This document shows positions 6,977 to 35,163 of a DNA stretch of 64,000 bases, piece after piece; the first letter of the stretch is position 1, and every line of letters begins with the position of its first letter. The position numbers were made by a program, and so were the translations under genes. This stretch comes from Dehalococcoidia bacterium (GTDB lineage: Bacteria > Chloroflexota > Dehalococcoidia > Lucifugimonadales > UBA3495), in assembly GCA_034428635.1 (NCBI GenBank), contig DAOUHR010000085.1, positions 905 through 64,904 on the forward strand. Reading direction: 5' to 3'. The notes under the pieces were generated by a model. The model saw nothing but the letters and a program-made list of their open reading frames with translations, was not told the DNA's origin and did no database searches.

Positions 6977-7181
6977 CACGAACATTCATCCACGAAGGAC
7001 ACGAAGAGACACGAAGAGACACGAAGCTTTTCCTGAGTTTCACCAGGGTGAGGGCCCGTTGAGTTTTCACCCCATTCCTTCGGCAGGATCAGGACAGGCT
7101 CTAACCTTGCTCCTTTACGGAGGAAGGAACCTTTTCAGAAGTTCCATGAGCTATTCGTGAATCTTCGTGTCCCTTCGTGGA
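6977..7181. repeat. CACGAAG-repeat inverted-repeat element filling the ahbAB-sirC intergenic region
   Basis: Left arm has CACGAA(C/G) at 6977, 6991, 7000, 7010 and 7020. Right arm has TTCGTG at 7154, 7164 and 7174 (10-bp phase), inverted relative to the left arm. About 125 nt of hairpin-rich interior. Confidence 0.6.
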
Positions 7182-7205
7182 TATAATAGAGAAAAGAGGA
7201 GACCA

Positions 7206-7940
7206 ATGCCCGACTACTACCCCGTATTCCTGAACCTGGCGGGAAAGCGCTGCGTCATCATCGGCGGCGGAACCATTGCCCAGGGCAAAATCGGTGGCCT
7301 GCTGCAGGCCGGCTGCCAGATCACCGTTATCAGCCCCGACGCCACGCCGGGCATCCGGCAGGCTGCCCAGCGGGGCGACATTACCTGGCTGGAGCGCACC
7401 TACCAGCCGGGCGACATGGAAGGCGCCTTCATCGGCGTGGCGGCTACCAATGTGTGGCACGTCAATCGGGAAATCTACGAGGAAGCGGAGCGCCTGGGCG
7501 TCCTGCTCAACGTGGTGGACGACCCCGACCTGTGCAGCTTTATCGCGCCTTCCGTGGTCAAGCGGGAACCGGTGACCCTGGCCATCTCCACCGGCGGCGC
7601 AAGCCCGGCCCTGGCCCGCAAGCTGCGGGAAACCCTGGCCCGCGCCGAAGCCCTGGAATGGGCCGACCTGGCCGACGTGTTGGCCCAGGCCCGCCGCATT
7701 ATCAAGGAGCAGCGCGTGGTCGTCGATCCGGAACGCTGGCAGTGCTGCATCACCCGCAACCTGCTCGACATGGTGCGGGATGGACGAGGCCAGGAAGCCC
7801 TGGATTTGTTGCTGTCCCAACTGTTGAATCCGGAAACGGCCGGCATGTGCGACAATCTGGCCAAGTGCCAGACCCGGAGCTGTCAGGTACGACAGTCTGC
7901 CCGGGAAGAAGACGCCAGTCAGCGGGAGGCCGTGCGGTGA
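7206..7940 (+). CDS. sirC: precorrin-2 dehydrogenase / sirohydrochlorin ferrochelatase (SirC/CysG N-terminal type)
   Basis: Rossmann IIGGGTIAQGK, NVVDDPDLCSF and STGGASPALARKLR motifs. ATG 7206 follows AGAGGAG. Stop TGA overlaps the hemA GTG (GTGA). Confidence 0.85.
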   Translation: MPDYYPVFLNLAGKRCVIIGGGTIAQGKIGGLLQAGCQITVISPDATPGIRQAAQRGDITWLERTYQPGDMEGAFIGVAATNVWHVNREIYEEAERLGVLLNVVDDPDLCSFIAPSVVKREPVTLAISTGGASPALARKLRETLARAEALEWADLADVLAQARRIIKEQRVVVDPERWQCCITRNLLDMVRDGRGQEALDLLLSQLLNPETAGMCDNLAKCQTRSCQVRQSAREEDASQREAVR

Positions 7941-31278: not shown

Positions 31279-31308
31279 TTGACATTGTAGTTTAGATAAC
31301 TTTACAAT
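31279..31308 (+). promoter_or_regulatory. near-consensus sigma70-type promoter pointing antisense into the DUF3800 gene 3' end
   Basis: TTGACA (31279-31284), 18 nt, TACAAT (31303-31308). Two short hairpins follow (aagagcc/ggctctt and ccggtg/caccgg). Confidence 0.35.
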
Positions 31309-31388: not shown

Positions 31389-32042
31389 TTAGTAATAGTG
31401 TGTGTTTCCTCTCCGGAACAGGTCATATTCCGAGCCTATCTTATTCTGGATAAGGACATAGGATCGGTCGTCGCCACGTTCCCACTTTCTTTGAATCGCC
31501 CAGCAGCAGTAGTCCGCAACCTGCAGGCAAGGCTCGACAGAGAACGGCCACATATCCACTCTGACGTTTCTACTTCGTGACGTCATTTGCACGGCTTCAA
31601 GTAATCCGAATCTGAATCCGGCAAGTTTCCTTTTCTCGCCTATGGATGCCGCGATCACAAAAAGGTCGTCAAATGGGTCCGCAACTTGATTAGCAATGTA
31701 GTTCATGTGATAAAACCAGGCAAGTTTGTAAAAAGCTCCTTCCGTTGGCCTGGTGTGCGGCCTCGCCTTGCTCTTCTCCAGGATGGTGGCGTCCACTCTG
31801 AATTCATAGTGGGATAGCAAGTCAAAAACTCTATCTCGCACTGGTTGTTTATCGGTTGTGGCATGAAAAGGTCCAGGCTGGTTTAGGTTCTCCCAAACTA
31901 ACTCTCGCCTTAAGTTAAGCAATTCACTCTCAATGCCATGATCATCAATCAATACTGTAGCTAAGACAAAATATCTGGACGCACTCTGATTTCTACTGAA
32001 GTCAAAATTGCCCGCTTCATCGGCGTAAACATATCGTCGCAT
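31389..32042 (-). CDS. DUF3800-like protein
   Basis: N-terminal YVYADEAGNFDF and C-terminal LQVADYCCWAI match the DUF3800 pattern by eye. AT-richer than its neighbours (e.g. 28 G+C in 31861-31920). Confidence 0.7.
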   Translation of the reverse strand: MRRYVYADEAGNFDFSRNQSASRYFVLATVLIDDHGIESELLNLRRELVWENLNQPGPFHATTDKQPVRDRVFDLLSHYEFRVDATILEKSKARPHTRPTEGAFYKLAWFYHMNYIANQVADPFDDLFVIAASIGEKRKLAGFRFGLLEAVQMTSRSRNVRVDMWPFSVEPCLQVADYCCWAIQRKWERGDDRSYVLIQNKIGSEYDLFRRGNTHYY

Positions 32043-32129: not shown

Positions 32130-32158
32130 TTGACAACCCCGACAGACGCCATTAAAAT
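32130..32158 (+). promoter_or_regulatory. near-consensus sigma70-type promoter of the sulfite reductase leader
   Basis: TTGACA (32130-32135), 17 nt, TAAAAT (32153-32158). The leader ATG begins 9 nt after the -10 hexamer. Confidence 0.5.
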
Positions 32159-32166
32159 TCCTGACA

Positions 32167-32223
32167 ATGTTAGTCAGCCATATCTGCATCTGCGTTTGTA
32201 TTTGTACTTGTCCGCCCACATAG
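32167..32223 (+). CDS. candidate Cys-rich leader peptide MLVSHICICVCICTCPPT
   Basis: 18 codons plus TAG. Five Cys codons (TGC TGC TGT TGT TGT) alternate within 32185-32211. No SD, consistent with leaderless initiation from the adjacent promoter. Confidence 0.55.
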   Translation: MLVSHICICVCICTCPPT

Positions 32224-32261
32224 GGAGCGGGTAAGTCAACACGTCTGACAGACAACCCAGC

Positions 32262-32301
32262 GCCCACCAAGCTGATCGCCGTTTGGTGGGCCTATTTTTT
32301 T
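32262..32301 (+). terminator. intrinsic terminator (attenuator) in the sulfite reductase 5' leader
   Basis: 9-bp stem gcccaccaa/ttggtgggc (32262-32270 / 32283-32291), then cta plus a T7 run (32295-32301), 77 nt upstream of the GTG start. Confidence 0.7.
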
Positions 32302-32377
32302 GCCCGATTCCCAAACCCCAGGCACCGGAAAATCAGCATTAATTCAACCGACAAAGCGGAATTCGCAGGAGGCCAAA

Positions 32378-34213
32378 GTGACCACAAAAACTCAGCAGTC
32401 CCAGGAGGAAGTCTACCGGGAGAGCCTTGATCTGGCCTCAACCGCTCCGGGCGTCATCCCCTTCATGGAAAGTGAAGTCCAGCGGTTCGAGGCGGAGTCC
32501 GCCCGGTTCCAATCCGGCGAGCAAGACAACTCCGAATTCACTCCCTTCCGCCTCCGTCAGGGTGTGTACGGCCAGCGCCAGGCCGACGTGCAGATGATCC
32601 GGGTTAAGATTCCCGGCGGCATTCTCACCGCCGACGCCCTTGATGTCCTGGGCGACATCGCCGAGCAATATGCTCCCCTTGGCAAGGGTCACATTACTAC
32701 CCGCGAAAACATCCAGTTCCACCACATTCCCCTGCCCGAGTGCCCCGACGTCCTGCGCTTGCTGGGCACGGTGGGCCTGACCAGCCGCGAGGCCTGCGGC
32801 AACACCGTCCGCAACGTGGTGGGCGCCCCCACCGCCGGCGTGGATGCCGACGAAATATTCGATCCCACCCCCTACCTCACCGGCTACGTGCGGTTCGGGG
32901 TGCGGCACCCCATCACCCAGTCTTTCCCGCGCAAGTTCAAGTCCGCCTTCACCGGCGTTGACAGCCGCGACATGGTGGCCGCCGCCATCCAGGACCTGAC
33001 CTACGTATCGCAGATAAGGGTGGAGGACGGCGTCGAAAAGCGGGGATTCAAGGTTTACGTGGGCGGCGGCACCTCCATCATGCCCCGCCTGGCCAAGCCC
33101 CTTTACGAGTTCCTCCCCGAGGAGGACTACCTGCGCCTGGCCCTGGCCGTCTGGACCGTGTTCGACAAGGCCGACTCCCTGCGCAAGAACCGCATGATGG
33201 CCCGCCTCAAGGTGCTGATCGACCGCATTGGCCTGGACGAATTCCGCAACCTGGTGGAGGCCGAACTGGCCGAGATCGGCCCCATCGACCCCAACGACTA
33301 CATCGCCGACGAGGACATTTACCGGGAAAACCCGCCGGCCCTGCCGTCCGTCTCCGCCAACGGGTCCGGCAACGGCAGCGGCGAGTACAATTACTGGCTG
33401 GAGACCAACGTGGTAGCCCAGAAACAGGCCGGCTACAACATCGTCTACGTCAAGCCCGTTCGGGGCGACCTCAGCCCGGCCCAGTTCCGGGGCCTGGCCG
33501 ACATCCTGCGCCGCTACACCGGCGGCCGTTCCAACGCCACCCAGGAACAGAACCTGGCCCTCCGCTGGGTTCCCGACGGCTACCTGCACGACGTCTGGGA
33601 GGCCTTGGGCGCCATTGATTTGAACGAACCCGGAGCCCACACCATCAACAACGTGGTGTCCTGCCCCGGCACCGACAGCTGCAAGCTGGGCATCACCGCC
33701 TCCATGGGCCTGGCCAAGGCCGTCCGCGAGGAACTGGGCACCTGGAACGGCCTGATGGAGGACGAAGGCGTCAAGAAGATCCGCATCAAGATGAGCGGTT
33801 GCCCCAACGGCTGCGGCCTGCATCACATCGCCAACATCGGCTTCCACGGCGCCGCCATCAAGGGCCCCGACGGCAGCCAGATCCCCGCCTATGAAATGTT
33901 CCTGGGCGGCAACTATGGCGACAACCGGGTGGAGGACTCCCGCATCGGCTCCCGCATACCCAAGGTCAAGGTTCCCGCCAAGCTCGTGCCCGGCATGATT
34001 CGCGAAATCGCCACCTACTACAAGGACAACCGCCAGGAAGGCGAGGCCTTCAACCACTTCCTGGACCGGGTGGGCGTCGAGGAACTGACCTCCGTCGCCG
34101 CCGCCATCCAGGAGTCGGCGGCCAGCAAAGAGGTTGGCGGCGACCTGTACGTGGACTGGGAACGCACCAGCAACTACGTCCTGGAGCGGGGCGAAGGCGA
34201 GTGCGCCGTTTAA
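32378..34213 (+). CDS. sir: ferredoxin-dependent sulfite (nitrite/sulfite family) reductase, siroheme/4Fe-4S
   Basis: NIR_SIR repeats. Cys cluster SCPGTDSCKLG ... SGCPNGCG. GTG 32378 follows AGGAGG plus 5 nt. The track TTG start at 32300 lies inside the terminator T-run. Confidence 0.88.
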   Translation: MTTKTQQSQEEVYRESLDLASTAPGVIPFMESEVQRFEAESARFQSGEQDNSEFTPFRLRQGVYGQRQADVQMIRVKIPGGILTADALDVLGDIAEQYAPLGKGHITTRENIQFHHIPLPECPDVLRLLGTVGLTSREACGNTVRNVVGAPTAGVDADEIFDPTPYLTGYVRFGVRHPITQSFPRKFKSAFTGVDSRDMVAAAIQDLTYVSQIRVEDGVEKRGFKVYVGGGTSIMPRLAKPLYEFLPEEDYLRLALAVWTVFDKADSLRKNRMMARLKVLIDRIGLDEFRNLVEAELAEIGPIDPNDYIADEDIYRENPPALPSVSANGSGNGSGEYNYWLETNVVAQKQAGYNIVYVKPVRGDLSPAQFRGLADILRRYTGGRSNATQEQNLALRWVPDGYLHDVWEALGAIDLNEPGAHTINNVVSCPGTDSCKLGITASMGLAKAVREELGTWNGLMEDEGVKKIRIKMSGCPNGCGLHHIANIGFHGAAIKGPDGSQIPAYEMFLGGNYGDNRVEDSRIGSRIPKVKVPAKLVPGMIREIATYYKDNRQEGEAFNHFLDRVGVEELTSVAAAIQESAASKEVGGDLYVDWERTSNYVLERGEGECAV

Positions 34214-34224
34214 CTCGTTTCTTT

Positions 34225-34295
34225 TCCACGAAGGGCGCGAAGTAACACGAAGAGCAGAGAGGTTCAACTTCGTGATTCGTCCCGTCCTTCGTGGA
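34225..34295. repeat. short CACGAAG-repeat inverted-repeat element
   Basis: tccacgaagggcgcgaagtaacacgaagag (34225-34254) and cttcgtgattcgtcccgtccttcgtgga (34268-34295) are inverted arms of the same family as 6977-7181. Confidence 0.5.
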
Positions 34296-35163
34296 CTTCA
34301 TTCGTCGGGAGTATGAGACTTTGGCCTCTCTGAGCGGCAAGACCGTAGCCTTCGTGGAAGCCCGGATGACTTCGGAAATGGCCGGGCTCATTGAACGCCA
34401 CGGCGGCGTTCCCTACCCCGCGCCGGTGCTGCAGGAGGTGTACCTCAAGGACAGCCCCGAGGTGCAGCAACTCGTCCTCGACACCTGCTCCGGCCACATC
34501 GACGCCGTTACTCTCCTCACCGGCGTCGGCACCCAGGCACTGGTCTCCACCGCCGCCGCCATGGGCCGCGAGGAAGAATTCATCCTCGCCCTCGACCAAC
34601 TCACCGTTATCGCCCGAAGCCCCAAACCCGCCCGGGTCCTGCGCCAGCACAAAATCCACATCGACGTAATGCCCCCGGAACCCTACACCACCGCCGACCT
34701 GGTCAACTCCCTGGAGAACTGGGACCTGTCCGGCAAGGTGGTAGCCCTCCAGCACTACGGCGGCCCCAACCGCCCCCTAGTCCAGCACCTGCAGGATAAG
34801 GGCGCCGACGTCAGGGAAGTCACCCTCTACACCTGGGGTCTGCCCGAAGACGAGACCCCCGTTCTCGCCATGGTCGACGACCTGGCCGCCGGCGCCATTG
34901 ACGCCATTGCCTTCACCAGCCAGCCCCAGGTGGGCAACCTGCTGACCATCGCCGCCAACGCAGGCAGGGAAGCCGCCCTGCGAGCCGCCCTGGGCGCCAG
35001 CAGCAAGCCGGCCGATGGCGCTAAAGATCGGGGAGCGGTCGTGGCCTCCGTGGGGCCGGTTTGCAGCCGTCGCCTGCGGGATGCCGCAATCCCCGTTGAC
35101 GTAGAGCCGGAACACCCCCACATGGGCAGCATGGTACTCGCCCTGGCCGACTATTTCGGGTAG
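34291..35163 (+). CDS. uroporphyrinogen-III synthase (HemD) family protein
   Basis: GKTVAFVEARMTSEMAGLIERHGG...IDAVTLLTGVG...IDAIAFTSQPQV pattern of HemD two-lobe proteins. The start is uncertain: GTG 34291 lies inside the repeat arm. Confidence 0.7.
   Translation: MDFIRREYETLASLSGKTVAFVEARMTSEMAGLIERHGGVPYPAPVLQEVYLKDSPEVQQLVLDTCSGHIDAVTLLTGVGTQALVSTAAAMGREEEFILALDQLTVIARSPKPARVLRQHKIHIDVMPPEPYTTADLVNSLENWDLSGKVVALQHYGGPNRPLVQHLQDKGADVREVTLYTWGLPEDETPVLAMVDDLAAGAIDAIAFTSQPQVGNLLTIAANAGREAALRAALGASSKPADGAKDRGAVVASVGPVCSRRLRDAAIPVDVEPEHPHMGSMVLALADYFG

Follow-up and report, generated by a model that had tools for sequence, protein, structure and literature searches.

We describe here a short leader upstream of a sulfite reductase gene, sir, in a 64-kb stretch of SAR202/Dehalococcoidia (Chloroflexota) DNA (the window, with a base composition of about 60% G+C). 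The element is probably a transcription attenuator of the classical, ribosome-mediated kind (leader-peptide attenuation), with cysteine as the amino acid sensed. This reading is supported in silico by the conservation of a Cys-rich mini open reading frame (ORF) with its promoter and terminator, by the recurrence of the leader before a second operon (a thiF-like gene and a cysteine synthase gene, thiF-cysM below), by the in-frame placement of TGY triplets, by covariation, by pairing between the antiterminator strands and by simulations with the ribosome at successive positions. The arrangement is kept in >100 species. The initial annotation had proposed that the supply of charged Cys-tRNA controls read-through into sir, and the comparative and folding analyses reported below speak for that proposal. 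The features of the locus are as follows.

32130..32135 (+): -35 hexamer TTGACA, from the sequence and a consensus scan; kept in nearly all leader-bearing sir and thiF loci.
32153..32158 (+): -10 hexamer TAAAAT, with a spacer of 17 nt from the -35 hexamer.
32167..32223 (+): leader ORF MLVSHICICVCICTCPPT and stop, 18 codons plus TAG, without a Shine-Dalgarno (SD) sequence; presumably leaderless or with a 5' untranslated region (UTR) of 1-2 nt.
32185..32211 (+): run of putative regulatory Cys codons, codons 7, 9, 11, 13 and 15 (TGC TGC TGT TGT TGT).
32203..32217 (+): region 1, the 5' strand of hairpin 1:2, comprising the last two Cys codons, Thr and Pro-Pro and paired in the minimum-free-energy (MFE) fold.
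32223..32238 (+): region 2, GGGAGCGGGUAAGUCA, whose predicted partner is region 1 (anti-antiterminator or pause hairpin) or region 3 (antiterminator).
32255..32265 (+): region 3, ACCCAGCGCCC, which supplies the 3' strand of the antiterminator and overlaps the 5' arm of the terminator.
32259..32301 (+): intrinsic terminator, a 13-bp stem (32259-32272 with 32281-32293) and a T7 tract at 32295-32301.
32367..32372 (+): SD of sir, AGGAGG, 5 nt before GTG 32378; its sequestration by the leader is not consistent across loci.
32378..34213 (+): sir, encoding a NirA/SirA-type siroheme-[4Fe-4S] sulfite reductase of 611 residues (Pfam NIR_SIR, NIR_SIR_ferr).
34291..35163 (+): gene for a HemD-like uroporphyrinogen-III synthase, the presumably co-transcribed second gene (Pfam HEM4, NCBIfam).

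The signals on which the initial annotation was built are all in place. The promoter scores 11/12 in the consensus scan, and the -10 hexamer is separated from the A of ATG 32167, before which no SD is found, by 8 nt (TCCTGACA). The Cys codons of the 18-codon ORF begin at 32185, 32191, 32197, 32203 and 32209. The core terminator hairpin gcccaccaa/ttggtgggc at 32262-32291 is followed by cta and T7, and both the terminator scan and the MFE fold lengthen its stem, to 11-13 bp (32259-32293 in the folded form). The GTG at 32378, 5 nt beyond AGGAGG, indeed opens a NIR_SIR/NIR_SIR_ferr protein. Mini-ORFs with at least five Cys in nine codons are expected 0.03 times in 64 kb of Markov-1 random sequence and occur once in the window. 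The window leader folds better than its shuffled versions (z = -2.8), and the Rfam 15 covariance models, leader-peptide families included, gave no match on the + strand of 32130-32377 at E values up to 10. Another Cys-dense mini-ORF, MDEARKPWICCCPNC, with four Cys at 7780-7827 (+), was set aside as a chance occurrence because it lies out of frame within the ORF at 7167-7940 and has neither promoter nor terminator.

The comparative set consisted of 58 orthologous sir loci, one per species, with Sir identities of 46-98%, all from Dehalococcoidia, SAR202 or Chloroflexota metagenome-assembled genomes (MAGs), many of them of sponge or deep-water origin. A Cys mini-ORF lies 90-190 nt 5' of sir in nearly all loci with a Sir identity of at least 66%, as well as in three of those with about 50% identity. 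The shared layout runs from TTGACA-17-TAnnnT through a gap of about 8 nt to an SD-less start codon, the ORF, a hairpin over its stop, an intrinsic terminator, an SD and then sir-hemD. The promoter, its spacer sometimes 18 nt, is present in nearly all leader-bearing sir loci, and the gap between -10 hexamer and start codon is 8 nt in most of them (range 6-9). An alignment of orthologous upstream regions had been suggested as a check on the attenuator, and in it both the Cys mini-ORF and the terminator turned out to be conserved, the latter with covariation.

In this ORF the Cys signal is carried by the codons. The 45 distinct sir leaders have 14-26 codons, of which 2-6 encode Cys, and their TGY triplets are distributed over frames 0/1/2 as 171/32/3, with TGT (98) and TGC (73) used interchangeably. 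Cys makes up 22.8% of the leader residues, against about 1% in Sir and HemD together. In 34 of the 45 the last Cys precedes the stop by exactly four codons, and the usual peptide ending is CxCTCPPT/S before the stop; diverged or low-GC lineages have variants such as CCVPK, CTCTPK, CCRPFT or LCICLSP. In their N-terminal half the leader peptides are free to vary, both in sequence and in length, with the frame kept open despite insertions and deletions before the Cys run. The sir-like loci of at most 54% identity (L043-L049) carried no Cys leader and gave no Rfam match at the gathering score. The region about 120 nt upstream of the sir-like gene (for example L043:330-450) holds a promoter conserved among them, ttgacacg...tgctagact, and a GC-rich leader, roughly 100 nt long, whose short ORF, MDSSDAASLR and stop, is devoid of Cys. 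This may be a different regulatory leader, possibly belonging to a differently specialised (nitrite?) reductase.

The same leader is found before a second operon. An exact-motif scan with a 23-nt leader motif, one genome per species, placed the motif in Dehalococcoidia 5' of sir and 5' of a gene for an E1-like adenylyltransferase of the ThiF/MoeB/MoeZ family, which is followed by a cysteine synthase gene (TIGR01136 cysKM, 353 bits against a cutoff of 344). A promoter-linked mini-ORF with 2-4 Cys, ending in C(T/A)CP.T and stop, is present in 70 of the 79 usable thiF orthologue loci, among them L206 of OY761558.1, the genome closest to the window. In these thiF leaders TGY frames 0/1/2 count 181/52/13 and the last Cys lies four codons before the stop in 68/69; across the sir and thiF leaders Cys accounts for 16-23% of residues. 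A covariance model built on sir leaders only detected 59 thiF leaders at full length, with E values down to 3e-12 in a search of 630 kb, its remaining matches being the window's own leader and three two-Cys sir leaders outside the model; the two sets of leaders therefore form one RNA family. Both operon classes occur within single genomes, for example OZ250155.1 (L098, L111) and OY761558.1 (L001, L206). A looser pattern scan brought up no third class, the Dehalococcoidia matches standing only before sir or thiF-cysM.

Several observations belong beside this second operon. At L074:3521-5453 and in the orthologues L150-L229 it encodes a ThiF/MoeZ-like E1 without a rhodanese domain and a CysK/M-family cysteine synthase. 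Such a pair recalls cysteine synthesis by way of a sulfur carrier (CysO), but beside the operon in L074 no small gene of the ThiS/CysO type was seen. In L195:2270-2500 (OZ253548.1) many tandem copies of a 16-nt unit, ctactatagaccaagc, fill the region upstream of the thiF-like gene, where relatives have the Cys leader. The 23-nt motif also matched sequences that we regard as unrelated to the Cys leader. In Bradyrhizobium and other Alphaproteobacteria the matches fall in a frame, conserved and some 28 codons long, that ends in ...ATCPPA and stop (L061:3724-3746, L065, L076, L078, L115, L121, L125), and in Selenomonas they end ...CPPP and stop (L094, L128, L131, L136). That these frames persist from genus to genus hints at a conserved element or gene of another kind, and Rfam gave no match at the gathering score in L061, L094 or the Caulobacter match L119. 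A Rhodococcus match with five Cys, L232, was rejected as chance because it lies inside overlapping high-GC ORFs.

The alternative RNA structures on which attenuation would depend are found in the alignments as well as in the folds. In its MFE structure the window leader forms hairpin 1:2 (32203-32217 with 32224-32238), with the stop codon in the loop, together with terminator 3:4, and the in-frame stop occupies the loop of hairpin 1:2 in >100 sir and thiF loci. Among 41 leaders, terminator 3:4 shows 42 alignment cells with double changes where 18+-3.4 are expected, a value reached in none of 500 shuffles, and its energy is -9 kcal/mol or lower in 114 of 116 leaders. Hairpin 1:2 is paired in 72.9% of alignment cells, compared with about 45% when the strands are slid, and a candidate outer helix between the 5' end with its AUG (32168-32179) and 32243-32254 reaches only 51%. 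For antiterminator 2:3, an earlier covariation test on a 41-sequence MAFFT alignment met near-invariant columns and gave no signal. In a 97-sequence alignment made with a covariance model that had been fitted only to 1:2 and 3:4, its contiguous register is paired in 89.1% of cells, against 37-61% in slid controls, and six pairs show double changes where 2.1+-0.9 are expected.

The effect of a ribosome on these structures was modelled with nascent-RNA folds, used in place of equilibrium folds, in which the transcript extends up to the terminator loop and the ribosome footprint is masked. For the window, these folds pair region 2 (GGGAGCGGGU) with region 3 (32255-32265) only with Cys13 or Cys15 in the A site, and the pairing is absent with the ribosome at the stop codon or with no ribosome. 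The two pairings of region 2 drawn by hand in the initial annotation are thereby reproduced, that with 32203-32217 in the MFE fold and that with 32255-32265 when a ribosome occupies the last Cys codons. In the leaders of both operons, the terminator arm is sequestered most with the ribosome at offsets of -5 to 0 relative to the last Cys codon, and less once the ribosome has reached the stop. For these two placements, respectively, sequestration amounts to 0.43 and 0.29 in the sir leaders (n = 46, p = 3e-4) and to 0.67 and 0.33 in the thiF leaders (n = 68, p = 3e-11). The result is robust for footprints from A+9 to A+13 and weaker at A+15 and A+17. The geometry, as modelled, is that of a trp-type attenuator, with the regulatory codons in region 1 and immediately upstream of it, a stop codon that separates region 1 from region 2, and a region 3 common to antiterminator and terminator.

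A number of points weigh against this interpretation. Helix 2:3 shows modest covariation, its G- and C-runs being almost invariant, and in the window's clade the helix is weak, with 9 bp, a bulged A and an A-G mismatch, and covers just the basal 4-6 nt of the 13-bp terminator stem. Equilibrium folds with ribosome masks give the terminator at every ribosome position. Of the fold test suggested in the initial annotation, the exchange between 2:3 and 3:4 is borne out by the ribosome-masked nascent folds, but at equilibrium the terminator always wins; the antiterminator must therefore act kinetically. The signal in the sir simulations fades if the ribosome protects at least 15 nt 3' of the A site, and the p-values are optimistic, since the loci are related by phylogeny. 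As to initiation, the start codon of the thiF leaders mostly lies 10-11 nt past the -10 hexamer, which points to a short 5' UTR rather than to strict leaderlessness, and predictions for Chloroflexi make leaderless genes a minority (about 5% of genes in 4/12 genomes).

We infer where transcription starts, that the leader is translated, that the transcript is terminated or read through and that cysteine governs the outcome; together these steps would work as follows. Transcription would begin about 7-9 nt past the -10 box, giving an RNA that starts at the AUG or 1-2 nt before it; the distance between the -10 hexamer and the start codon places the transcription start site (TSS) there and is the sole evidence for leaderless initiation. 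The 18-codon leader would then be translated without an SD. When Cys-tRNA(Cys) is plentiful, the ribosome would pass the five Cys codons and reach the UAG, where it would cover region 2 (32223-32238), or region 1 would re-pair with region 2 after its release. Region 3 would be left free, the 13-bp terminator 3:4 would form, and transcription would stop at the T-tract near 32301, leaving a transcript of about 135 nt. Under a shortage of Cys-tRNA(Cys), the ribosome would stall with a late Cys codon in the A site, masking region 1. Region 2 could then pair with region 3 and capture the base of the terminator 5' arm, and the delayed or weakened terminator would let RNA polymerase read through into sir-hemD. 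As one RNA family appears to control both the sir and the thiF-cysM operons, stalling at Cys codons would coordinate a small cysteine-assimilation regulon.

A more far-reaching version of this mechanism may be considered, which we regard as speculative and on balance unlikely. In it, the near-invariant Cys-Pro-(Pro)-Thr-UAG-G would be more than the C-rich strand of hairpin 1:2, namely a slow-elongation or slow-termination module acting at the level of the peptide, which, where cysteine is plentiful, parks the ribosome over region 2 and so sets the timing of termination. The leader would then be a minimal, SD-free attenuator whose translation starts on a 5'-terminal AUG as the RNA emerges and, with the copy at thiF-cysM, part of a phylum-specific 'ribulon' that replaces protein sulfur regulators.

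The genes under the leader fit the amino acid that it would sense, as both operons, sir-hemD and the ThiF-like E1 with its cysteine synthase, belong to the pathway of cysteine. The best PDB homologue of the sir product is Mycobacterium tuberculosis NirA (1ZJ8, E = 5e-55), which is reported to be a sulfite reductase. Against the NCBIfam NirA family the sir product scores below the cutoff, and hidden Markov models alone do not separate nitrite from sulfite reductases in this case. The Cys leader argues for sulfite as the substrate. A HemD-like gene lies directly 3' of sir on the same strand in 42 of the 58 loci, a pairing that fits a supply of tetrapyrrole precursor for the siroheme cofactor of Sir.

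Among other explanations, the one that fares best, improbable as it is, holds that the product of the mini-ORF is a Cys-rich micropeptide with a function of its own (active towards metals or in redox reactions, or the precursor of a modified peptide), co-expressed with the sulfur genes and possibly made from a dual-function RNA, and that its Cys residues are kept for the activity of the peptide. The conserved C-terminal motif C-x-C-(T)-C-P-P-T could be read in this way, and for the polycysteine leaders of mycobacteria Canestrari et al. 2020 (10.1101/834739) noted that conserved non-Cys residues could mean an independent peptide function. In the present family, however, the conserved C terminus coincides exactly with RNA region 1, whose CCN codons find their partner in the G-run of region 2, and relatives of low GC content have VPK in place of PPT yet keep the pairing, which makes the micropeptide unnecessary as an explanation. 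Besides, the N-terminal half is unconstrained, the number (2-6) and spacing of the Cys residues vary, a terminator stands between the mini-ORF and the operon, the element was seen solely 5' of two cysteine-assimilation operons, and no modification or export genes are adjacent.

Slightly less probable still is attenuation at the level of translation, in the mycobacterial manner, in which the leader RNA would sequester the SD of sir, a stalled ribosome would free it, and the terminator would be incidental or secondary. Such SD sequestration is experimentally established for Ms5788A, and in the window the MFE fold of the read-through transcript pairs the SD region of sir (32365-32373) with the leader ORF at 32177-32187, the first Cys codon included. 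This pairing is not conserved in orthologues and is therefore probably fortuitous: the mean probability that the SD pairs with the leader ORF is 0.23, about the ORF's share of the transcript length, the probability exceeds 0.5 in just 9 of 44 loci, and that of pairing with the Cys run averages 0.07. What is conserved across the leaders is a strongly covarying intrinsic terminator, at a distance from the SD that ranges from about 20 to 100 nt.

We give about the same small weight to an untranslated structured leader, a riboswitch or a protein-binding RNA that would sense a sulfur metabolite or regulator, with the ORF as a by-product of sequence constraints. Cysteine and methionine regulons are often controlled by riboswitches or T-boxes, and the leader does contain conserved blocks (TGTCCNCCNACATAGGGNGCNGG and CCTGCGCCCNCC) besides the stable fold mentioned above. 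An untranslated RNA would not be expected to confine TGY to one frame while exchanging the synonymous TGT and TGC, nor to hold a start codon at a fixed distance from the -10 hexamer, a stop in the 1:2 loop and an ORF that stays open despite insertions and deletions; no multi-helix, aptamer-like core is apparent beyond the two alternative hairpins, and Rfam offered no match. Finally, a chance co-occurrence of promoter-like site, short ORF and hairpin in an intergenic region, which might be entertained given that consensus promoter and terminator matches occur near the background rate here, is excluded for practical purposes by the conservation of the element across species and two operons, by the covarying terminator and by the rarity of Cys-dense ORFs in random sequence.

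The preferred reading, a transcription attenuator sensing charged Cys-tRNA, has the plan of the classical systems (trp, his, leu, thr, ilv and pheA of Proteobacteria, trp of Corynebacterium and Streptomyces). As in these, a leader ORF carries codons for the end product, its stop falls between regions 1 and 2, a terminator precedes the first structural gene, the genes regulated are those of the cognate amino acid, and the 1:2, 2:3 and 3:4 helices are mutually exclusive, here in silico. Unlike these, the SAR202 element would sense cysteine, is SD-less with its start 8 nt past the -10 hexamer (leaderless or nearly so) and belongs to Chloroflexota; it has no sequence or Rfam relationship to them.

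The initial annotation was mistaken in holding that no Cys-leader attenuator had been characterised, and it overstated the novelty of the element, because Cys leaders have already been demonstrated or predicted in other phyla. The demonstrated case, and the sole Cys-codon attenuator with experimental validation, is that of Mycobacterium smegmatis, where leaderless polycysteine small ORFs (sORFs) attenuate several cysteine operons through SD sequestration, for which Canestrari et al. 2020 introduced the term 'Cys ribulon'. The two systems share Cys-rich sORFs 5' of several cysteine-metabolism operons, a C-terminal Cys tract and the logic of a ribosome-sensed regulon. The case characterised in mycobacteria regulates translation by means of an SD-sequestering duplex and has no intrinsic terminator, whereas what is conserved in the SAR202 element is a covarying terminator, not SD sequestration. 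The Cys codons, consecutive in mycobacteria, often alternate here (CxCxC), and there is no homology. The mycobacterial transcript starts at the AUG or GUG of the sORF; for the SAR202 element we infer the start from the gap of 8 nt (sir) or 10-11 nt (thiF) and from the missing SD.

Closer in its parts is uORFC-8-2 of Rhodobacterales (Brewer et al. 2021, PMC8632094), an upstream ORF with conserved Cys codons in a stem, followed by an intrinsic terminator and predicted to mediate ribosome-mediated attenuation in response to Cys-tRNA. That alphaproteobacterial element, a prediction as is ours, controls the tRNA synthetase gene cysS and has two tandem Cys codons at positions 14-15, while the SAR202 element stands 5' of sir or thiF-cysM and has a CxCxC or CC pattern ending four codons before the stop. 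For cysS of Deinococcus deserti, a leaderless leader peptide of 10 residues with two Cys has been described (de Groot et al. 2014, PMC4007540), likewise predicted to mediate transcription attenuation; it concerns one gene in one genus and its TSS is mapped, unlike that of the SAR202 element. Candidate Cys leader peptides of cys and cbs operons in Actinobacteria (Seliverstov et al. 2005, PMC1262725) resemble ours in having Cys-codon runs near the stop of a short ORF 5' of cysteine biosynthesis operons; neither terminators nor alternative hairpins were found there and Rho-dependence was suggested, whereas the SAR202 element has all the components of an attenuator. A literature search returned no paper on such an element in Chloroflexota.

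Two further features of the window lie outside the leader and its operon. Beyond hemD there is a separate promoter-like site with a small gene and then a convergent two-component system. On the other side, a promoter-like TTGACA-18-TACAAT (11/12) at 31279-31308 (+), just past the 3' end of a divergent DUF3800 gene (31389-32042, -), points antisense into that gene.

The concept of cysteine sensing by a leader ribosome is anticipated by the mycobacterial, Deinococcus and Rhodobacterales examples; what is new is the phylum, the probable leaderless start and an undescribed RNA family that spans >100 species and two operons. The finding extends ribosome-mediated cysteine sensing to Chloroflexota and appears to provide the first complete classical attenuator, with ORF, antiterminator and terminator, on genes of cysteine biosynthesis rather than on cysS. 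It supports naming an ambiguous NirA-like enzyme a sulfite reductase and ties an operon of a ThiF/MoeZ-like E1 and a cysteine synthase to the supply of cysteine. The logic of the 'Cys ribulon' would have arisen here independently of mycobacteria, with an output that is transcriptional rather than translational, and if the slow-termination, ribulon version were true, protein sulfur regulators would have been replaced in a lineage abundant in oceans and sponges. The RNA family, absent from Rfam and present in >100 SAR202/Dehalococcoidia species, could improve the annotation of abundant marine and sponge MAGs, and it gives this ecologically important and largely uncultured lineage a regulatory family that is clean, well conserved and testable.

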